This document shows positions 10,809-58,347 of a DNA stretch of 64,000 nucleotides, piece by piece (the first letter of the stretch is position 1; each line of letters starts with the position of its first letter). A program made the position numbers and the translations under genes. The DNA lies in the IMG/VR virus record IMGVR_UViG_3300044557_000107, positions 64,001 through 128,000 of that record. One strand, written 5' to 3'. The stretch comes from a virus. Lineage: Duplodnaviria; Caudoviricetes. Below the pieces are notes generated by a model. The model was not told where the DNA came from and did no database searches. It was given only the letters and a program-made list of their open reading frames with translations.

Positions 10809-11945
10809 ATGACTTTGAAAGGAATCAAACTAAGAATCTACCCTAATAGAGAACAACAATTAAAGATTAAACTTAACTTTGGATATAACAGATTTGTTTG
10901 GAATCAGATGTTAGACATGATGATTAAACGCTATGAAAATAATCCCGAAGCGCCTTTTCTGGGAGCCTATACCCTAGATAAACTATTACCAACCCTAAAA
11001 TGTGAATACCCATTCTTAAAAGATGCTGAATCTACCAGTCTTCAAAATACTAATCATGACTTGATTGAAGCTTATAAGAAATTCTTTAGAGAACACAAAG
11101 GATTTCCTAAGTTTAAATCACGTAAATTTCCTAAGCAGAGTTACCAATCAAAAATGGGAATTAGCAAGGCTTCAACAAATTATTTAAAGCTACCTAAGAT
11201 TGGTGTTGTTAAAGCCAAAGGACAAATACCAGACTGTAAAATTAATAGGGTTACTATCAGATTATCTGCCACAGGAAAATTCTATGTGGTTTTGTTAGTT
11301 GATACAGATATTAATAGTCTTCCTAAAACTAATAATGCCGTAGGCATTGACATGGGTGTAGCAGATCTGATGATTACTAGTGATGGTATTAAATATCCCA
11401 CGATTAGATTTGATAAACTCCTCAGTAAAAAGAAACATTATTGGGAGAAACGGTTAGCTAGACGTAGACTGCAAGCTAAGAAGGAAATAGCTTGGGATAA
11501 GCATAATAAAGTAGCAGAGCCACATGAATTAAGTGATTTCAAGAACTACCAAAAAGCTAAAACTATGGTTGCCAAGTATAATGAGAAAATAGCTAACCAG
11601 CGCAATGATTATCTTCATAAGTTAACTAAGTCTTTAGTAGAGCAGTATGATGTGATTAAGATTGAAGATTTGAAAGCCAAAAATCTTCTAAAGAATCACA
11701 AGCTCGCTAGAGCAATTGCTAACCAATCATGGAGAGAACTACGTACACAGTTAGAATATAAATGTGAATGGTATGGTAAACAACTAGTCATTGTTAACCC
11801 CAGAAAAACATCACAAATTTGCTCTAATTGTGGTTATGATGATGGTAAACACACATTGGATATTCGACAGTGGACATGTCCTATGTGTGGTACCCATCAT
11901 GATAGAGATATTAATGCTGCTAAGAACATCTTAGCTAGTGAATAA
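10809..11945 (+). CDS. tnpB: TnpB RNA-guided endonuclease (IS200/IS605 family), copy 1, no tnpA
   Basis: KLRIYP N-terminus; RuvC I GIDMG, RuvC II IEDL, Zn finger CSNC/CPMC, RuvC III DRDINAAKNI; all catalytic residues intact. Confidence 0.95.
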   Translation: MTLKGIKLRIYPNREQQLKIKLNFGYNRFVWNQMLDMMIKRYENNPEAPFLGAYTLDKLLPTLKCEYPFLKDAESTSLQNTNHDLIEAYKKFFREHKGFPKFKSRKFPKQSYQSKMGISKASTNYLKLPKIGVVKAKGQIPDCKINRVTIRLSATGKFYVVLLVDTDINSLPKTNNAVGIDMGVADLMITSDGIKYPTIRFDKLLSKKKHYWEKRLARRRLQAKKEIAWDKHNKVAEPHELSDFKNYQKAKTMVAKYNEKIANQRNDYLHKLTKSLVEQYDVIKIEDLKAKNLLKNHKLARAIANQSWRELRTQLEYKCEWYGKQLVIVNPRKTSQICSNCGYDDGKHTLDIRQWTCPMCGTHHDRDINAAKNILASE

Positions 11946-38509: not shown

Positions 38510-38580
38510 GCCTCTATAGTTCAATGGTAGAACACTAGTCTTGTAAACTAGGAATAGAAGTTCAATTCTTCTTAGAGGCA
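38510..38580 (+). tRNA. tRNA-Thr(UGU)
   Basis: GCCTCTA/TAGAGGC acceptor, CTAGT-CT TGT AA-ACTAG anticodon arm, AGAAG-TTCAATT-CTTCT T arm. Confidence 0.88.
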
Positions 38581-38890: not shown

Positions 38891-39104
38891 TTGACATTCT
38901 GTTTAACTACTAGTATACTAAGAACCATAAAGAACTTAGGTAACCATAGATGCGAAAACCAAGTATCTTAATAAGTTACTTAAGGATCTTTAAGTAAACT
39001 GGGCTGGGACAGCCCTTAGTAAATAGCTGTAACCTATAGATACTTTAGAGTATCCAAGTACGCAGTGTTCCTAGAAGCTCGTCACTTTAGTAACGAGCAG
39101 TTCA
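38891..39104 (+). ncRNA. Stand-alone omegaRNA cassette A (promoter + scaffold; guide from ~39105 CTGCCCACCAGTACCTCC)
   Basis: TTGACA-17-TATACT promoter; 39000-39104 is homologous to the tnpB-1 omegaRNA with compensatory changes and ends AGTTCA. Confidence 0.8.
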
Positions 39105-39273
39105 CTGCCCACCAGTACCTCCTGTCAAGGGTTATTGAAAACTGGTGTAAAACTAATATGTCGCGTCCAGTAATATGACTGGGGTGGGATGACTAAGGGT
39201 TGACACCTAACAAGACTGTCCGTTATCCTACATATTAGCAGGTAACCTTTGAGAGGCTTTGGGTTACCACAAT

Positions 39274-39361
39274 GGATAGGTACTCAAGTGGTTAAGAGGG
39301 TTGCTTGCTAAGCAATTAGGTCGTATAATGCGACGCGTGGGTTCGAATCCCACTCTATCCT
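39274..39361 (+). tRNA. tRNA-Ser(GCU)
   Basis: GGATAGG/TCTATCC acceptor, GTTGC-TT GCT AA-GCAAT, long variable arm, GTGGG-TTCGAAT-CCCAC. Confidence 0.9.
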
Positions 39362-39527: not shown

Positions 39528-39740
39528 TTGACATTCTGTTAACTAGGGGTATACTAAAAACTATAAAGAACTTAGGTAACCATAGATGCGAAAACCAAGT
39601 ATCTTAATAAGTTACTTAAGGATCTTTAAGTAAACTGGGCTGGGACAGCCCTTAGTAAATAGCTGTAACCTCTATGTGCTTTAGGGTACTCAAGCATGCA
39701 GTGTTCCTAGAAGCCCGTTACTTTAGTAATGAGTAGTTCA
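39528..39740 (+). ncRNA. Stand-alone omegaRNA cassette B (promoter + scaffold; guide from ~39741 CGGAGGACATATAGTTTG)
   Basis: Near-duplicate of cassette A from GTTGACA to AGTTCAC, then sequences diverge completely. Confidence 0.8.
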
Positions 39741-39755
39741 CGGAGGACATATAGT

Positions 39756-39911
39756 TTGAAATTAGATACGGATAAATTATGCCAGGCTATTGAAGATCTG
39801 GGATATACACCAGAGTTAAACTATAGTAATCCCGGAATAGAAGTTGATGGGAAGCATATAGACTGGGAAGATATTGGAACAGTATTAGATGTAACTTCAA
39901 AAGTAGTATAA
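39756..39911 (+). CDS. Small acidic hypothetical protein (51 aa)
   Basis: RBS GGAGG then TTG; MKLDTDKLCQAIEDLGYTPE...; ORF-track start 39729 lies inside the omegaRNA. Confidence 0.55.
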   Translation: MKLDTDKLCQAIEDLGYTPELNYSNPGIEVDGKHIDWEDIGTVLDVTSKVV

Positions 39912-39919
39912 AACCAGCT

Positions 39920-40690
39920 TAATGCCATCCAAGGTTGCTATTAGATCTCAATGTAATTGAAGTTTAATAGCATCTCTGGATGCACGATCAGCGGCATAGC
40001 CGTGTAGACTGCGTGGGCCTGAAACATGGTCATTAAGATAACTCAATCGTTATCTTGGGGTAGTTAAGCCTAGCAACAGAATTTAGCCGTCTCCGAAGGT
40101 AGCGGGACGTTAATTTAGAATACTATCTAATTGCATGATATAGACCGCAACGTCTCTAAACTATGGTACTAGTGTTAAGCGTGTGTATGAGGAACTATCA
40201 GTTTCGCCACGTCTAAGATCCATATTTTAAGTAAAAACGCAGTCGTCGGGTGAGGATACCCATCAGGTTACTGTCTCGTTAACTGTAGTAGTCAGCGGGT
40301 AGGCAAAAGAAAGTCTAGTTTGTGGGGTCTTAGGGGATAAAATGGAAGAATAAGGTACTTACGGAGTGGGGCACATAATATTCCAGCAACAGCAAATATG
40401 GCTTAACAACCATAGAACCAAAGTTGTACGTTAATAAGTGTCTTTGCTGTGATAGGACTAATAATCCCTATAACACTCCAGTAAGGTTTTAGTAGGTCAA
40501 GGCAGAGGCAGATAAAACTTGAAAAATAACTTAACTGCTAATGATGACTGAAAGATGGTCGGTAGATAATCCGGGCCCAGTTCTTGTGAAGGTAGCTAGA
40601 GCATGCAAATGACGGTTTGTGTGTTAGCCTAGCTAAAACTGTAACCTAATAATTCGCACATTAAGATTACCCACCCAAGCCAATGGGAAC
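39920..40690 (+). ncRNA. Large ornate ncRNA, GOLLD/ROOL-like
   Basis: ~770 nt with no ORF >=60 aa, GC-richer, many long-range helices, in a phage tRNA cluster; family not verifiable by eye. Confidence 0.6.
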
Positions 40691-40698
40691 ACTATTAT

Positions 40699-40789
40699 AC
40701 AGGTGTAGCATAACGGCAGTGCAACTGGTTTATAACCAGTATTAGCTGTAGATTTCAGCAAGAAGTGGGTTCGACTCCCTCCACCTGTA
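40699..40789 (+). tRNA. tRNA with UAU anticodon (Ile) and long variable arm
   Basis: ACAGGTG/CACCTGT acceptor; ACTGG-TT TAT AA-CCAGT; variable hairpin GCTG-TAGATTT-CAGC; TTCGACT T loop. Confidence 0.78.
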
Positions 40790-40910
40790 TTTTAGCAAAT
40801 GTAGAAATATTTGGGGAACCTATACCCCTTTATAGGAATATTTTGAAAAGCTAAAATTGGAAGTACCCAAAATTAAGGTATCCCAAGTCTTATCAATATA
40901 AGATCAATAT

Positions 40911-40981
40911 TGAGAGGAGCTAAAGAGTTAGAATAGCGATGCAGGTTCTAGCTTATGCAGGTTTAAATCCTGCCTTCCACA
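40911..40981 (+). pseudogene. Degenerate tRNA-like element
   Basis: T-arm-like GCAGG-TTTAAAT-CCTGC and stem GTTAGAA/TTCTAGC, but no clean D arm or anticodon loop. Confidence 0.4.
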
Positions 40982-40982
40982 T

Positions 40983-41531
40983 TGTCCCGTAGTTGAGTGG
41001 TAACTATGTCTAAATAAGCTGGTGAAAAATGATAAATGGTAACTATATAATGGAAGTAGCCCCTAAAGAATATCCCTATAGGCTTATGCGTGGTAAATAC
41101 GCTTACTCTCATAAAGTAGCATATTGGAAATATTACGGATGTATACCAGAGGGTTTTGAAATTCATCATAAGGACGGAAATAAGCATAATAATGATATAT
41201 CAAATTTATGTGCGGTTTCTAGAAAGCAACATCAGATAATTGAACACGTAATAAGAGGAAAAGTTCAAGTTCTTGTTAAATGTCCAGTATGTAATTCATT
41301 ATTCATTATAGATAAACGCAAGACTCATTTGATAAACTCCAATAATAAAGTAACCTGTTGTAGTAGAAGCTGTTCTGGTAAATTTCCCTCACTAACTAAA
41401 ATTGAGCAAGATAAAGGGATTAACGAGAATATTATAATGGAGTTTACAAATCATGTATTACCATAAATATAAAACATTAATGTTTTATAAAACTAATGCG
41501 GATATCACAGGTTCGAATCCTGTCGGGACAG
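40983..41531 (+). tRNA. tRNA gene split by HNH insertion (5' half 40983-~41011, 3' half ~41497-41531); isotype undetermined
   Basis: Acceptor TGTCCCG pairs with CGGGACA; D arm TAGTTGAGTGGTAAC upstream and T arm ACAGG-TTCGAAT-CCTGT downstream of the HNH ORF. Confidence 0.7.
41029..41466 (+). CDS. HNH homing endonuclease with C-terminal Zn-binding domain
   Basis: YSHKVAY...IHHKDGNKHNNDISNL; CPVC...CCSRSC. Confidence 0.88.
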   Translation: MINGNYIMEVAPKEYPYRLMRGKYAYSHKVAYWKYYGCIPEGFEIHHKDGNKHNNDISNLCAVSRKQHQIIEHVIRGKVQVLVKCPVCNSLFIIDKRKTHLINSNNKVTCCSRSCSGKFPSLTKIEQDKGINENIIMEFTNHVLP

Positions 41532-41546
41532 TTTAAAATACAATTT

Positions 41547-41634
41547 AGAGGGGTGTCAGAGTGGTCTAATGTGTCGGCTTTGAATACCGATGATCGTGAT
41601 GAGCGATCCGTGGGTTCGAATCCCACCCCCTCTG
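41547..41634 (+). tRNA. tRNA-Ser(UGA)
   Basis: AGAGGGG/CCCCTCT acceptor, TT TGA AT loop, long variable arm, GTGGG-TTCGAAT-CCCAC. Confidence 0.85.
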
Positions 41635-41640
41635 TATTAT

Positions 41641-41714
41641 CACGCGCATAGCTCAGCTAGCCAGAGCACCACGTGTGGTTGTGGAGTATGCCGGTGCAAA
41701 TCCGAAGCGCGCGA
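41641..41714 (+). tRNA. Atypical or degenerate tRNA-His(GUG)
   Basis: TAGCTCAGCTAGCCAGAGC D arm, CCAC...GTG...GTGG anticodon arm, irregular T loop (TGCAAAT) and acceptor. Confidence 0.5.
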
Positions 41715-41725
41715 TAAAATAAGTA

Positions 41726-41778
41726 TTGACTTAAGGATACCTTAGTGGTATCCTTATTTTAGTTAAATGAAAGAAGGA
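41726..41778 (+). promoter_or_regulatory. Repeated early promoter/RBS cassette with internal inverted repeat, copy 1
   Basis: TTGACT-17-TATCCT with TAAGGATAC...GTATCCTTA palindrome; near-identical copies at 53953 and 62319. Confidence 0.8.
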
Positions 41779-41785
41779 AATCTTA

Positions 41786-42241
41786 ATGGCAATTATGAGT
41801 GCAAAACAATATAGGAATCAATTGAATAGTAAAGTACAGGATTCTGACAGTAAACTATATGAAGATGGATTAGCAAGGATTGAAAAAGCAATAGATGAAA
41901 GATTAAAGAGTGCTTACCCCGGTTGGTATGTAGAGGTATTTTTAGATACTGACACGATGCGGGGGAATGCTCTTAAAAATATTCGATTGAAACTAGAAAA
42001 TCTGGGATATTTAGTTATCACCTGCGAGAAAGATCCGCTGAATCCCCTTGTACGTGATCTATTTATGAAAATCATAGTTCCGGACCCAGATGAACCCACA
42101 ATTTATTTCAAGAGAAGAATTCAAAGTTTGCTCCCACGAAATGACCATTCCCAGCGAATTATGTTAAATAGTCACATGGATGAAGGGAACTCCGGACTAG
42201 TATTAGATATTCTCCGGGAAACTATTAGAAAAGGGGAATAA
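41786..42241 (+). CDS. Hypothetical protein
   Basis: 151-aa ORF behind promoter cassette. Confidence 0.65.
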   Translation: MAIMSAKQYRNQLNSKVQDSDSKLYEDGLARIEKAIDERLKSAYPGWYVEVFLDTDTMRGNALKNIRLKLENLGYLVITCEKDPLNPLVRDLFMKIIVPDPDEPTIYFKRRIQSLLPRNDHSQRIMLNSHMDEGNSGLVLDILRETIRKGE

Positions 42242-42243
42242 AA

Positions 42244-43974
42244 ATGATCGATAAAGTTCAACTAGATAAGTATATCAGTGATCATCTCAGTGCCTACTCA
42301 GACACCAACGAGTACCGTTTAGCACTAGTAAGTCAAACACATGGAGTTTACTCTGGAATTGTCTCTATGACTAAATCAGGTAAGGATAAGAAACGTTATT
42401 TAGACTTCATCCTAGACTTTACTGATCGTAGCCTAACCATCTCGGGGATTAGTGGTAAACAGTTAAAATCCACAACAGGATTACTTAATGAGATCTTTAA
42501 TAATGGAGACTATGCGTTAGCAGAAGGACTCAGTGAAACTTCTGTTCAGACTTTAGATACTATTAAGTACTTGGGTATGTTATATGGGTCCTTGGGACGT
42601 GAGCCTATTAGTCATATGAACATTGGACGAGGACTTCTTCGGGCCCTTCATACTTTCCCAGTAGCAGAATCCTATGTTAAGGAATTCTCGGATAAAATGA
42701 AGGATCTTTTTGTAGAGATTCATAAAGGAACTTTGATGTTTGAGTCTGCTAAGAGCTTCTTTTCTAGGGTAATGTTTTCCCATTGGAATCTTATTAGTTA
42801 TTATCAAGAAGAGTGGGATAAAGGTAAACATAAGCCTTTACAGAAGGTACTAGGAATCTCTAAGGATACCTATAATAGATTAAAGAAAGAAGACTTATTG
42901 AAAGACAGTATGGGATTTCGTTATTATGACTTTATAGAATACAATAATTACTTGTATGATAAATGTGATGGAGATAACGTATATCGTTTAAAAAATACTG
43001 TTGATAGCTATTATTCTTTCCCTATATCGTTTATTAAAAAGGCTAATGAGGTTAACTGGAATCGGTTAGAACAAACTCTAAAAGATGTTGATGATGAACG
43101 AGGGTACCATAATTATAAGTCCTTTTATGATAGCATGCGTTCTAATATGAGTCGTTATGTGGCTTACAATTCAGAATATCCGATGAATAGTGGTTATCCA
43201 ACTATTAGTGATGTTGCAAACATGGGAAACACCGATATTTTTAATTTATCTCGTTACCTATACGCAAGTTGTTACCACCAACAAGCAATAGATTTTGAGA
43301 ATGCTCTTGAAATTCTTAAGGATTACTATAAAATGGTTGCAGATGTCCCACACTTTGTTAAGTTCCCCCGCTACTTAAAGACCGCTCATGATATTGCTTC
43401 ACGAAATGCAGAGGTCCTCGGTAGTAGCTCAGATATTCTTGCAGTTCACAAGGTGTATACACACAACCAGAAGTTAGAAATGAACTTCAAAGATTACTCT
43501 ATGATCTTAGCAGCATCTCCTAAAGAAATTGTAGATGAAGGGCAACTCCAGCATAACTGCGTAGGTTCTTATGTAAATGATGTTGTGAAGGGTACAAGTA
43601 TTATTCTATTTTTACGAAAGAAATCGGATATTTATCGATCATGGGTTACAGTTGAAGTCCGTAATATTGATGGAACATTAAAAGTTGTTCAAACATTTGC
43701 TACATTTAATGATGTGCTTAATGATGAACAGAAGAAAGCTCTAGCAACTTGGATGAAGATTAACAAAATACAGCTTGGAGATAGCGTTGGTGGGGTTGGA
43801 CGAGTTTCTAATGATGAATTATCTAAGTTAGCTGTCAAAACTGCAAATATTCACAAAATTGATATGGAATTTCATCGGGATTCCTTTGATAAAATTGCGG
43901 AACAGAAGAGTAAGATGGAATCAGCTAAGAAAGAATTAGAAGTAAATAGTTTAAAAGTTAAGAAAGCATCTTAG
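42244..43974 (+). CDS. PcfJ-domain protein
   Basis: DYYKM...FPRYLKTAHD...EGQLQHNCVGSY...ILFLRK...TVEV. Confidence 0.75.
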   Translation: MIDKVQLDKYISDHLSAYSDTNEYRLALVSQTHGVYSGIVSMTKSGKDKKRYLDFILDFTDRSLTISGISGKQLKSTTGLLNEIFNNGDYALAEGLSETSVQTLDTIKYLGMLYGSLGREPISHMNIGRGLLRALHTFPVAESYVKEFSDKMKDLFVEIHKGTLMFESAKSFFSRVMFSHWNLISYYQEEWDKGKHKPLQKVLGISKDTYNRLKKEDLLKDSMGFRYYDFIEYNNYLYDKCDGDNVYRLKNTVDSYYSFPISFIKKANEVNWNRLEQTLKDVDDERGYHNYKSFYDSMRSNMSRYVAYNSEYPMNSGYPTISDVANMGNTDIFNLSRYLYASCYHQQAIDFENALEILKDYYKMVADVPHFVKFPRYLKTAHDIASRNAEVLGSSSDILAVHKVYTHNQKLEMNFKDYSMILAASPKEIVDEGQLQHNCVGSYVNDVVKGTSIILFLRKKSDIYRSWVTVEVRNIDGTLKVVQTFATFNDVLNDEQKKALATWMKINKIQLGDSVGGVGRVSNDELSKLAVKTANIHKIDMEFHRDSFDKIAEQKSKMESAKKELEVNSLKVKKAS

Positions 43975-44700: not shown

Positions 44701-45036
44701 TTGACAGAATATCTCAAAAGAGGTATTCTTTTAGTACATAGAAAAGAGGGATATAGCATGAATAAAAGACAACGTAATAAATATATTCTAGTAAGCACAT
44801 CGGATGTTCTGGGATACTATGAGTGTAGTTCGAAGAAGTATAAGGACATTAAGTATAATTTAAATGTAAACTTAGACGGTTATCTAGTCCTTCATAAAAG
44901 GTTCTATTTGAAAGAGATAATTAATAAGGGATTATCTTGGCTAATTTTGCAAGATTCTAAGATTAAGCATCCTAGATACATGAATTATTTGAAGGTAAAT
45001 GTAAAGTATGATAGGTTGGTGAACTTGGGTGAATAA
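44701..45036 (+). CDS. Hypothetical protein (start probably ATG 44758)
   Basis: RBS GAGGGA before MNKRQRNK. Confidence 0.55.
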   Translation: MTEYLKRGILLVHRKEGYSMNKRQRNKYILVSTSDVLGYYECSSKKYKDIKYNLNVNLDGYLVLHKRFYLKEIINKGLSWLILQDSKIKHPRYMNYLKVNVKYDRLVNLGE

Positions 45037-45877
45037 TGGATACTTAATTGTTAGTGATATTCATGGAAATTATCAAGCTCTTAAGCACATGGTTGATATT
45101 CCAGAGTTCTCAAATTCTAAGATTATTTTTGATGGAGATTACATCGATGGCTATGGAGTTAATGATTCTGATAAAGTAGTAGACTTTATTGCAGATCAGT
45201 ACCAGCGTAATAATGCTACAGTTCTGCCGGGGAACCATGAATTACTATTATATAAGTATATCTATGGTGAACGAAGAGACTGGGAATTATATAAAGCTAA
45301 TGGAGGGAAGCGTACAGTAAAGTCCTTCCTAGGAGAAGCTACTCGTAGCTCGGTTTCTAATAAGGTAGCACTAAGGGATAATAAATATTGGAATCAACTA
45401 GATTCTATGATGGATCACTGTTTTGACATTCGAGATACTGTAGTAATGTATGAAGACTCTAAACTGATTACAGTCCATGCAGGTTTAAGTTATATTGCTG
45501 AGGATTACCATAATACCAACTTGTGGGATAGCTTATGGATGCGAGAGGATTATTTCTATGGACTTAATACGAAGTACCATAATGATAACTACTTTGCACG
45601 TAATAAGTTTCACAAGCCCATTGTGGTAGGACATACTCCCACGTGTACTTTAGAAGGTATCTTACCTACAGGAACTCAGTTACACTATACTAGGGGTGAT
45701 TTAGAGTGTCCCGTGGTAGTATCTAAGTATGAAGATGAGGAACCACGATTCTTTATTGACGGAGGGAGCCATGGAGCTACCAATTCATTAAACGTTCTCT
45801 ACTATGAAAGCGAAGATAACTACGGAGCTTACAAGCTAACTCCGGATGGTCTTACAGAAGGGGAGATTGTGAGCTAG
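45029..45877 (+). CDS. Calcineurin-like metallophosphoesterase (Ser/Thr phosphatase family)
   Basis: SDIHG, GDYID, GNHE, VHAG, GHTP motifs. Confidence 0.9.
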   Translation: MNNGYLIVSDIHGNYQALKHMVDIPEFSNSKIIFDGDYIDGYGVNDSDKVVDFIADQYQRNNATVLPGNHELLLYKYIYGERRDWELYKANGGKRTVKSFLGEATRSSVSNKVALRDNKYWNQLDSMMDHCFDIRDTVVMYEDSKLITVHAGLSYIAEDYHNTNLWDSLWMREDYFYGLNTKYHNDNYFARNKFHKPIVVGHTPTCTLEGILPTGTQLHYTRGDLECPVVVSKYEDEEPRFFIDGGSHGATNSLNVLYYESEDNYGAYKLTPDGLTEGEIVS

Positions 45878-46020: not shown

Positions 46021-47208
46021 TTATTTAGTAATTTTAGTTGTATCTCCAGTTACCCAGTTAGTTCCTAAGTATTGAATATTCATAGCACCAATGCGGTCAT
46101 CATTAGACTTATAACCACAGTTGGCACACTGGTACTCATGAATATCATGTTTTCTGTTATTTTTATTGACAGATCCACATTTAGGACAACGCTGGCTGGT
46201 ATACTGAGCACTAACCTTAATAACTTTAGAACCATTAAGTTCTGCTTTATAGGTTAGAAATTGCTCAAACTGGTAGAAAGCCCAGCTAACCTGCTCGTAA
46301 CGATTTGTTTTAGCAACTTTCTCCGTAGCAAATCGAACATTGGTTAAGTCTTCTAATACAAAGAGAGTGTCTTTACCATATTTATCAGTGAGTGTCTTAG
46401 TTATTCGATGATTAATATCACTCATCCAGCGGTTTTCTCGCTGACCAATGGCTTTAAGTCTTCTTTTAGCAGACTTAGTACCCTTACTTTGTAATTGTTG
46501 TCTTAACTTCTTGTACTTTCTACGTTTTGCTGTAATAGCTTTACCATCTATAAAGGAAGTTTTACCTTTTTCATCATAAGTGGTTGCTAAAAAGCGTAGA
46601 CCTCTATCTATGCCAACTACATGTTTCAAGTCATCTTTTTCAAAGATACGAGGTTCTACAGTAGCAGAGATATGCAAGAAGTAATGTCCATATGATTTAA
46701 CAAGTTTAGCAGTGCCTAATTTACCATCTAAGTATTGTTCAAAGCCCTTCATAGAAAAACCCATAATTTCACGGTTACCTAAGGTATTAAGAGATAGCTT
46801 ACCATTCTTAAATGACCAGTCACGTATAGATACTAAATCACACTGAGGTCTTTTAAAGCTAATAGGCTTTTGTAACCATGATAGGTCACGCTGAGCGGTA
46901 TACCAAGTATCAGTGTTGTTATCTTTATAGTGGTATGGCTCTTGTTTAAGCTGTGTTTCTACAGTTCTATACCTAGCAATAACTGTTTTAAAGACAGATT
47001 GTGTCATTTGTGCCTTAAGACCAAACTTGTCCCTAACCTTATGATACAAATCTTTATTAATATCTTTTTGCTTAGGTATAAAGTTATGGTCAAAGTAGTA
47101 CTTAGATACTAAATTACAGGCATTCCTATACTGTTGCATAGTAGCTAGTAATAAGTTACCTTGTTCAGATGTAGGATATATTCTTGCTTTAATAGTTACA
47201 GTTGTCAT
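46021..47208 (-). CDS. tnpB: TnpB RNA-guided endonuclease, copy 2, no tnpA
   Basis: IKARIYP; GIDRG, LEDL, CPKC/CANC, NDDRIGAMNI; start ATG 47208 after RBS AGAGGTG (track gives 47232). Confidence 0.93.
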   Translation of the reverse strand: MTTVTIKARIYPTSEQGNLLLATMQQYRNACNLVSKYYFDHNFIPKQKDINKDLYHKVRDKFGLKAQMTQSVFKTVIARYRTVETQLKQEPYHYKDNNTDTWYTAQRDLSWLQKPISFKRPQCDLVSIRDWSFKNGKLSLNTLGNREIMGFSMKGFEQYLDGKLGTAKLVKSYGHYFLHISATVEPRIFEKDDLKHVVGIDRGLRFLATTYDEKGKTSFIDGKAITAKRRKYKKLRQQLQSKGTKSAKRRLKAIGQRENRWMSDINHRITKTLTDKYGKDTLFVLEDLTNVRFATEKVAKTNRYEQVSWAFYQFEQFLTYKAELNGSKVIKVSAQYTSQRCPKCGSVNKNNRKHDIHEYQCANCGYKSNDDRIGAMNIQYLGTNWVTGDTTKITK

Positions 47209-47235
47209 TTGTGTTTCACCTCTTCCCTTCACTAT

Positions 47236-56958: not shown

Positions 56959-58347
56959 ATGAAAGAAAAGTTAAACAAGGGGATTAAGGTCAGAATATTT
57001 CCTAATGAAGAGCAAGTGGGACAAATTAGATTATCATTTATGTGGGCACGGAACTTTTATAACTATCTGGTTGAATACCAGAAAGACTACACCAAAGCTA
57101 TCTGGATTATGCGAGATCGAGAAGGTGGATATAGAAAAGATAAGAATGGTAAAGTTATACTATTTGACAAGAAGGGTAATGAAAGTAAAACTGGTAAACC
57201 TCAGTTTAAGTATAAGGGAAATGTATATCTAAGTAAGTTTGACTTGATGAAGTTAGCTTCACCTTATCGAAAGTTTCATAAAGATGCAGGTGCAAGTAAG
57301 GTGGACAGCCACGTTTATGAAATGACGGCCACTTCATTTTATCAAGCGATTCAAAATCAATATAATCCTAGAATGATTAATGCAAAAGCACCTAAGAAGC
57401 ATAAATGGGTTACTTCATATACTAGTAGATACACACAAGCGTCTAAGTTTTCATCAACAAAGAAAAGTGGTTCTGTTCCAAGCATGTATAGTGTAACAAA
57501 ACATTGGGTAAAGGTACCAAAGTTAGGCATGGTTAAATACTCTGGTTCACAATCATTGAAAAATATTAAGCCAAAGAACTTTACTATTACAGAGGATAAA
57601 ACAGGTAAATTCTACATGAGTATTATTATTGAATATCATAAGGATATTAAATCTGTTAAGCCTGTAAAAGTAGTTGGGATTGACTTAGGGTTAGATACTC
57701 TAGCTATTACTAGTGAGGGTAAAAAATATAAGATTATTCCTTTCACTAAGAATCATGAAAGAACCCTAGCAATTAAGAGCAGAAAAGCAAGTAAGAGAAG
57801 ATTATTCATGGAAACGGTTATTGGATCTTCTAAGAATAAGGCAAAGCTGTTTCCACTTACTCAACATGATTTTCCTAGTGTTAATGAAGCATACAGGGGA
57901 AGAGCTTTAGTATATAAGCACACTGCAAATCAACGAAATAACTATCTTCATGAAGTAAGTAGAAGCATTGTAGATTCTGCTGATGCAGTGGTTGTAGAAG
58001 ACATTACCGCTAGTTTCATGATGAAGGGTGGTAAAAGTAAGAAAACAGGTCGTAAGACTAAGAATAAGAGCGCCAAGAGTGCTAGTAATGCTAGTTGGAA
58101 CAAGCTATTAGTATATCTAGAATACAAGTGTAAGGAAGATGGAAAACAGTTTATTAAAGTAAGCAAAAACTATACTAGTCAGATTTGCCATGATTGTGGT
58201 TATTTATATGAAAACTTGGGTGTACCAAATGGTGGTGACAATCGTTCTGTTCGTGAATGGGACTGCCCTAAATGTGGGAAACATCATGATCGTGACATTA
58301 ATGCGGCTATCAATATTAAAAATAGAGGGTTAGAAGTTATTGATTAA
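56959..58347 (+). CDS. CRISPR-adjacent TnpB-derived RuvC nuclease (Cas12f/TranC-like), 462 aa
   Basis: KVRIFP; GIDLG, VEDI, CHDC/CPKC, DRDINAAINI intact; longer than the other two TnpBs; followed by leader and array. Confidence 0.85.
   Translation: MKEKLNKGIKVRIFPNEEQVGQIRLSFMWARNFYNYLVEYQKDYTKAIWIMRDREGGYRKDKNGKVILFDKKGNESKTGKPQFKYKGNVYLSKFDLMKLASPYRKFHKDAGASKVDSHVYEMTATSFYQAIQNQYNPRMINAKAPKKHKWVTSYTSRYTQASKFSSTKKSGSVPSMYSVTKHWVKVPKLGMVKYSGSQSLKNIKPKNFTITEDKTGKFYMSIIIEYHKDIKSVKPVKVVGIDLGLDTLAITSEGKKYKIIPFTKNHERTLAIKSRKASKRRLFMETVIGSSKNKAKLFPLTQHDFPSVNEAYRGRALVYKHTANQRNNYLHEVSRSIVDSADAVVVEDITASFMMKGGKSKKTGRKTKNKSAKSASNASWNKLLVYLEYKCKEDGKQFIKVSKNYTSQICHDCGYLYENLGVPNGGDNRSVREWDCPKCGKHHDRDINAAINIKNRGLEVID

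Follow-up and report, generated by a model that had tools for sequence, protein, structure and literature searches.

An HNH endonuclease gene lying inside a tRNA gene raises the question of whether it resides in a new class of bacterial tRNA intron, whose removal would restore the tRNA, or whether the tRNA gene has simply been destroyed. The gene in question was found in a phage genome represented by a 139,820-bp virus record with direct terminal repeats. The window, to which all coordinates without a prefix refer, is the whole stretch of 64,000 nt analysed and corresponds to bases 64001–128000 of that record. The analysis described below makes it very probable that a tRNA-Asn(GTT) gene has been killed by an intron-less ('free-standing') HNH homing endonuclease gene and that no new intron class is involved.

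The tRNA cluster and the tRNA-Asn remnants

Genes of the record match PHROG families of sheath, baseplate, portal, terminase and major head proteins, which identifies the phage as a large myovirus. Its capsid protein shares about 43% identity with those of Bacillus and Staphylococcus Herelleviridae among the GenBank phages, and the PcfJ-like gene adjoining the tRNA-Asn/HNH locus shows 31–35% identity to genes of Lactobacillus Herelleviridae; no tRNA genes were found beside the PcfJ-like gene of Lactobacillus phage Iacchus. The GenBank phages contain no close relative of this phage, with DNA matches confined to the tRNA-Ser gene, and the HNH protein is at most 47% identical, over part of its length, to proteins encoded by them. 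As for IMG/VR, no relatives of the PcfJ-like neighbour gene were found there, the major capsid protein finds just a fragment (64% identity) and a relative (41% identity), both in records without tRNA genes, and exact searches with the 5′ 22-mer and the 3′ 24-mer of the broken tRNA gave 0 matches each.

The broken tRNA-Asn gene sits in a same-strand cluster of RNA genes. The features of the cluster and of the locus itself are as follows:

38510–38580, same strand as the cluster: tRNA-Thr gene (ARAGORN, default settings)
39274–39361, same strand as the cluster: tRNA-Ser gene (ARAGORN, default settings)
40698–40790, same strand as the cluster: tRNA-Ile(tat) gene (ARAGORN, default settings)
40983–41002, + strand: 5′ remnant of tRNA-Asn(GTT), tRNA positions 1–21 (sequence; contigs of relatives diverge after 41002)
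41003–41493, + strand: inserted HNH cassette, 491 nt, in place of tRNA positions 22–35, 14 nt (joint 41002→41494 in contigs of relatives)
41003–41028, + strand: leader of the cassette, 26 nt (sequence)
41029–41466, + strand: HNH_3 endonuclease gene, 438-nt ORF, 145 aa (ORF; PF13392, E = 1.3e-15)
41468–41489, no strand assigned: perfect 22-nt palindrome just 3′ of the HNH stop codon (sequence; unique in the 139,820-bp genome)
41494–41531, + strand: 3′ remnant of tRNA-Asn (sequence; contigs of relatives resume at 41494)
41546–41635, + strand: intact tRNA-Ser(TGA) gene, neighbour of the broken tRNA-Asn (ARAGORN; Rfam RF00005, 46.7 bits)
41732–41756, + strand: terminator-like hairpin with a T run, end of the tRNA/HNH cluster

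Two promoter-like sites, each scoring 11/12, are located upstream of the locus. A focused search of 801 nt placed a ROOL RNA (Rfam RF03087) at 40155–40690 on the + strand, with 99.7 bits against a gathering score of 99.1 (E = 4.5e-21); its 3′ end is 8 nt upstream of tRNA-Ile(tat). The latter tRNA has an unusual 21-nt variable arm, composed of a 4-bp stem and a 7-nt loop. The cluster also contains a 203-nt direct repeat (38903–39105 and 39539–39741, 91% identity). Each copy begins right after an 11/12 sigma-70-like promoter and contains a GC hairpin; the repeat may be a duplicated small RNA gene, and the first copy has no match in Rfam. Degenerate tRNA-like stretches at 40857–40981 and 41640–41715, the second with a 6-nt anticodon loop, abut the broken tRNA-Asn and the tRNA-Ser and are called by ARAGORN only at lowered thresholds. 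Elsewhere in the window, three genes match the PHROG 506 'transposase' family, at 10809–11945 (+ strand, E = 2e-119), 46021–47232 (− strand, E = 6e-58) and 56959–58347 (+ strand, E = 1e-76); they may be TnpB-like genes of the IS200/IS605 type.

The 5′ remnant contains the acceptor 5′ strand, U8 and A9, the D-stem 5′ strand GTTG and the D loop. The 3′ remnant contains U36, A37 and A38, the anticodon-stem 3′ strand TGCGG, the variable loop ATATC, the T arm, the acceptor 3′ strand and the discriminator G. As the first-pass annotation of this DNA had pointed out, the acceptor strands TGTCCCG (40983–40989) and CGGGACA (41524–41530) are perfectly complementary over 7 nt, and the T arm (ACAGG/TTCGAAT/CCTGT, 41507–41523) is perfect as well. 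When introns of 0–600 nt were allowed at the default threshold, ARAGORN reported a split tRNA at 40982–41532. Since this is the sole intron-type call genome-wide, and intron-mode runs on 30 dinucleotide-shuffled genomes yielded 0 calls, the tRNA halves can be regarded as real. Without introns, ARAGORN calls no tRNA at this place, and the Rfam tRNA model matches just the 3′ part with 15.8 bits. The window allele, lacking a complete cloverleaf and the GTT anticodon, is not a functional tRNA-Asn gene. In the whole phage genome, ARAGORN finds four tRNAs and no other tRNA-Asn.

Genuine tRNA genes of other origin end in the same 21 nt as the broken tRNA. In prokaryote genomes, this 21-mer occurs at five loci, four of them in Bacteroidales tRNA-Gln genes and one in no called tRNA; a tRNA-Gln identity suggested by this match was overturned by the intact allele, which encodes tRNA-Asn. 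The 3′ 24-mer is present at five loci in metagenome contigs, including intact tRNA-Asn genes on L041 and L042. Because sharing is limited to about 30 nt, these loci do not represent relatives of the phage. The contigs L045 (1044–1067) and L043 (227–250) carry the same 24 nt of T arm and acceptor 3′ strand, with no tRNA call by ARAGORN and no matching 5′ acceptor strand seen; they may contain further broken or odd tRNA genes.

The uninterrupted allele in close relatives

The part of the window at 40700–41800 is represented in 14 public runs from 10 studies, and contigs of X2–X5 were placed on 39900–42600. The likeness threshold for placement was 80, and joints below 95 may stem from other organisms; the pieces considered here are 97–99% alike. 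In X3 (fermentation) and X4 (groundwater), a joint without the HNH gene leads from 41002 to 41494, skipping 491 nt and passing through the 14 letters CAACGCCGTACTGT. These two metagenomes come from two studies separate from the likely source study of the phage. The joint is carried by one contig in X3 (shorter side of 78 letters) and one contig in X4 (shorter side of 181 letters), and the likeness of their flanks to the window is about 97.5–99%, with other letters at 6/241 positions in X3 and at 2/181 and 7/281 positions in X4.

The HNH-bearing form is likewise found outside the record. Contigs of X2 hardly differ from the window and span both junctions without a single difference; X1 and X2 share the year and the habitat and may belong to one campaign. 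X3 also carries the HNH gene abutting the 5′ remnant, on a contig that covers 40981–41345 with other letters at 9/365 nt, and both alleles are therefore present in one sample. The first 64 letters of this contig do not fit the window upstream of 40981. Thus, the HNH gene shows a presence/absence polymorphism at one locus among close relatives, being absent in X3 and X4 and present in X2 and X3. The combinations of alleles seen are a window-like upstream region with the HNH gene, a window-like upstream region without it and a different upstream region with it; on these short contigs, they give a weak hint of exchange between backgrounds. The first-pass annotation had listed a recent destructive insertion among its explanations and had proposed a search for an uninterrupted allele in relatives. 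Such an allele has now been found, in the contigs of X3 and X4, which supports that explanation.

A model of the intact gene, composed of 40983–41002, the 14 letters CAACGCCGTACTGT and 41494–41531, is called tRNA-Asn(gtt) by ARAGORN with default settings, and 21/21 stem pairs are standard; the model uses the flanks of the window, and the 2 and 7 differing letters of X4 could fall within the tRNA. Its stems are the acceptor stem TGTCCCG/CGGGACA, the D stem GTTG/CAAC and the anticodon stem CCGTA/TGCGG; the anticodon loop is CTGTTAA, the variable loop ATATC, the T arm ACAGG/CCTGT and the discriminator G. Judging by these elements, the short form is a canonical class I tRNA-Asn(GTT). The window allele has lost the 3′ strand of the D stem, G26, the 5′ strand of the anticodon stem, C32, U33 and two anticodon bases, the first and the second. 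The comparison with the intact model reveals no disabling changes in either remnant: the HNH cassette took the place of tRNA positions 22–35, and the remnants are otherwise intact.

The intact allele also corrects the earlier reading of the structure. The locus had been described as a tRNA gene simply interrupted at the anticodon arm, but 491 nt (41003–41493) replace 14 nt of the tRNA. A D arm had been recognised on the left. Its 5′ strand is indeed there, but the true 3′ strand, CAAC, is missing, and the apparent pairing with inserted bases is due to chance. The stem ATGTCT/GGATAT, which had been suggested to close the insert, is fortuitous too; GGATAT corresponds to tRNA positions 42–47, that is, to the anticodon-stem 3′ strand and variable loop.

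The HNH cassette, its relatives and the intron question

The location of the HNH ORF inside the tRNA gene, as originally annotated, was borne out. The HNH gene forms an ORF by itself, complete with start and stop codons, and is not embedded in an intron or an intein. The non-coding flanks, estimated earlier at about 18 and 30 nt, are actually 26 and 27 nt long. In the leader, the motif GGTG, 6 nt before the ATG, is a possible ribosome-binding site. The protein has matches to 14 PHROG HNH/endonuclease families. In an alignment of 11 sequences (A1), it keeps all 18 invariant columns, H46, H47, D49, N51, N55, N59, H68, C85, C88, C111 and C115 among them; the HNH residues and the four cysteines of the C-terminal zinc finger are intact. 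The trailer of 27 nt after the ORF contains the palindrome, which had been noted before and is perfect over its 22 nt. As RNA, the palindrome forms a weak AU hairpin of 9 bp with a UUAA loop (−5.5 kcal/mol), a fold matched by 0/200 shuffles.

A search for the HNH family yielded 18 proteins at E ≤ 1e-10, the best of which are 46–48% identical; the relatives P0001–P0007 lie outside the comparison of genomic contexts. The closest full-length relatives with known context are free-standing genes between complete tRNA genes. In L003–L006 (48% identity), the gene is located between tRNA-Met and tRNA-Asn, with its stop codon 11 nt before the tRNA-Asn; in L048 (42%), it lies between tRNA-Ile and tRNA-Met and, in L050 (35%), between tRNA-Arg and tRNA-Met. 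No tRNA remnants surround the HNH gene at these loci. Where the match reaches the C-terminal part of the protein, tRNAs are found within 2 kb at 4/11 loci and at 7/11 there are none. The more distant HNH loci have a tRNA in 2/24 cases, in both of them more than 1 kb away. The link of the HNH family to tRNA genes fades with the distance of the relationship. On L046, whose tRNA cluster contains the relative with 48% identity, there are two sub-threshold matches to the HDV-like ribozyme RF02682 (2517–2591 and 3788–3857; 39.4 and 34.2 bits, gathering score 44), each situated directly 3′ of a tRNA gene.

Two relatives are borne by introns. The HNH gene of L049 (34% identity) is inside a phage tRNA-Arg(tct) gene (L049:1864–2557) with a 617-nt intron, and that of L123 (29%) is inside a phage tRNA-Leu(taa) gene (L123:1789–2503) with a 628-nt intron. 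The exons are perfect in both. Both introns follow U34 in the anticodon loop, with the HNH gene on the sense strand. The site of the group I intron of tRNA-Leu(UAA) is between U34 and A35. The ORFs (L049:1917–2405 and L123:1905–2348) overlap a sub-threshold group I core with their last 130–145 nt, and the stop codon is followed by approximately 110 nt of intron in L049 and 103 nt in L123, as against 27 nt of cassette in the window. The first-pass annotation had seen no room for a ribozyme beside the HNH gene. A core is indeed absent from this locus, but the argument from space is unsafe for this family, where cores overlap the 3′ end of the ORF.

The absence of the core was established by a focused Rfam search of 601 nt (40960–41560), in which RF00028 had no match at E ≤ 10. 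Comparable focused searches found the cores of L049 (38.9 bits, E = 2.5e-8, L049:2261–2480) and L123 (26 bits, E = 1.8e-4, L123:2217–2416), both with scores below the gathering score of 50, and the negative result in the window thus has a working control. Searches of 4.5 kb and 21.9 kb were not relied on; they lacked sensitivity, as neither the ROOL RNA nor the group I cores emerged from them. The junctions of the insert are not group I-like either: it is preceded by A (41002) and ends with C (41493), whereas L049 and L123 have U before the intron and G as its last base. As to splicing enzymes, searches of the phage genome with PF09414, PF01139 and PF01974, families of RNA ligases and splicing endonucleases, found nothing; a phage RNA ligase was among the points proposed earlier for checking. 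The search with PF09511 carries no weight, its control having matched in no genome. A PHROG 'RNA ligase' match at 45029–45874 proved to be just a Metallophos domain. The availability of such enzymes is moot, since the exons are incomplete. With tRNA positions 22–35 absent, two anticodon bases included, no excision at the RNA level could restore the tRNA; the remnants cannot be joined into a tRNA and, hence, nothing is spliced.

The chance that the cassette nevertheless works as an intron, excised through self-splicing, with the help of proteins or along another route to give a working tRNA, is accordingly almost nil. What speaks for it is the model proposed by ARAGORN in intron mode, a 'tRNA-Ile(aat)' with a 462-nt intron, but this model is poor: half of the palindrome supplies its anticodon stem, which has 4 bp and is all A/U, extra bases bulge out and the D stem is mismatched. 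In reality, the gene is a tRNA-Asn, with 14 nt absent in the window. Together with the lack of a core in the controlled search and of matches to the ligase and endonuclease families searched in the phage genome, this refutes the protein-spliced or novel intron considered in the first-pass annotation. An assembly chimera has hardly any probability left. The record was indeed assembled from a metagenome, and repeats abound in tRNA clusters; however, another run, X2, bridges both junctions without differences, and X3 too has the HNH gene beside the 5′ remnant. In a different history, the cassette would be what is left of a group I intron formerly inserted in this tRNA gene, deletion having later removed the ribozyme core and part of the 5′ exon. 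Descent of the cassette from an intron is conceivable in view of the intron-borne L049 and L123: their introns occupy anticodon loops after U34 between perfect exons, with cores overlapping the ends of the ORFs, and the right end of the insert, directly followed by U36, is near the U34 site. Still, this history is very unlikely. The closest relatives (42–48% identity) are free-standing, and just those with 29–34% identity are intron-borne; the focused search found no trace of a core, the sequence after the stop codon is much shorter than in L049 and L123, and the left edge of the insert is at tRNA position 21 and not 34.

It could also be supposed that the remnants have been co-opted, with the acceptor stem and the T arm pairing across the HNH mRNA as a tRNA-like clamp. 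RNase P together with RNase Z or exonucleases would trim the transcript, giving the mRNA defined, protected ends or throttling its expression. In an extended form, close to the tRNA scaffold envisaged in the earlier annotation, tRNA-processing enzymes would excise the HNH mRNA and perhaps provide it with a CCA tail or stabilise it. In the minimum-free-energy fold of 40983–41531, the 7-bp acceptor stem does close the molecule and the T arm does form, and the remnants are free of disabling changes. The SegB paper discusses the processing of the tRNA-cluster transcript as a control on endonuclease expression (PMC2330249). Yet the fold is no better than those of shuffled sequences (z = −1.28; 12/100 fold as well), and the free-standing relatives L003–L006, L048 and L050 possess no such remnants. 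The intactness of the remnants is equally explained by a recent insertion, given that the flanks of the two alleles differ by just 1–3%. Co-option is therefore improbable; if true, it would provide a natural 'tRNA scaffold' for a protein-coding RNA.

Proposed homing in phage tRNA clusters

The insertion of a free-standing HNH gene at the expense of tRNA-Asn can be understood as the outcome of homing. By analogy with known systems, the HNH enzyme would cut or nick the intact tRNA-Asn allele of HNH-less relatives in a mixed infection, and repair from the HNH-bearing genome would copy the cassette into the HNH-less one. Carriers would be immune to their own enzyme, as the cassette removes the target. 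As reviewed in PMC3984707, homing sites have their centre at the point of insertion, and the inserted element shields its carrier. The loss of the tRNA would be tolerated by the phage if its tRNA genes are dispensable; both the absence of another tRNA-Asn and the degenerate tRNA-like stretches at the locus fit dispensable phage tRNAs. The HNH mRNA is presumably made within the tRNA-cluster transcript from the upstream promoters and may be freed by the processing of the neighbouring tRNAs. No RNA runs are listed among the public runs with this stretch; X5, guessed to be RNA, has one contig of 210 nt (41432–41641) and says nothing on processing.

Free-standing homing endonuclease genes in phage tRNA clusters are represented by SegB of T4, a GIY-YIG enzyme, and by F-TflI and F-TflII of T5 (PMC2330249). 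The locus in the window resembles these systems in that a selfish endonuclease gene is located among the clustered tRNA genes of a phage, in the orientation of the tRNAs, and is variably present among relatives. The likeness extends to the gene affected: the preferred target of SegB, as given there, is the tRNA-Asn gene of SegB-less relatives (PMC2330249). SegB, however, lies between tRNA genes and leaves the tRNAs whole, whereas the HNH gene of the window is inside tRNA-Asn, with 14 nt removed. The nuclease folds differ as well, GIY-YIG in SegB and HNH_3 in the window.

Some group I introns in tRNA anticodon loops also carry a homing endonuclease gene, an example being I-Ssp6803I in tRNA-fMet, cited in PMC3984707. 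As in tRNA group I introns, L049 and L123 included, the endonuclease gene of the window lies within a tRNA gene, and its insertion disrupts the likely target site. Unlike them, the cassette has no core, no U on its 5′ side and no G at its 3′ end; the exons are incomplete, and the tRNA is lost rather than rescued. A parallel for an intron-less endonuclease gene inserted in the body of a gene is provided by the ribonucleotide reductase genes of phages Aeh1 and Twort, which are disrupted by free-standing homing endonuclease genes (cited in PMC5418858). Protein genes split in this manner are usually functional as two pieces; a tRNA without positions 22–35 cannot be. Both free-standing endonuclease genes in phage tRNA clusters and endonuclease genes that disrupt host genes are already known. 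A paper on 'fractured genes' (PMC2677866) is also reported to deal with the splitting or disruption of host genes by such endonuclease genes. In the literature searched, judged at a level short of full texts, an intron-less HNH gene that breaks a phage tRNA gene is not described.

One of the candidates for a novel type of tRNA intron in bacteria is thus removed and a false lead cleared. The approach offers a way of testing other such candidates, combining the uninterrupted allele in public reads with a focused covariance search that uses relatives as positive controls. The intact and the HNH-disrupted tRNA-Asn form a natural allele pair, with which the target and the homing of a small HNH family of tRNA clusters become testable. 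This one family has three lifestyles in phage tRNA clusters: between tRNA genes; in self-splicing tRNA introns, where the core overlaps the HNH ORF; and, as in the window, intron-less inside a tRNA gene, at the cost of the tRNA.
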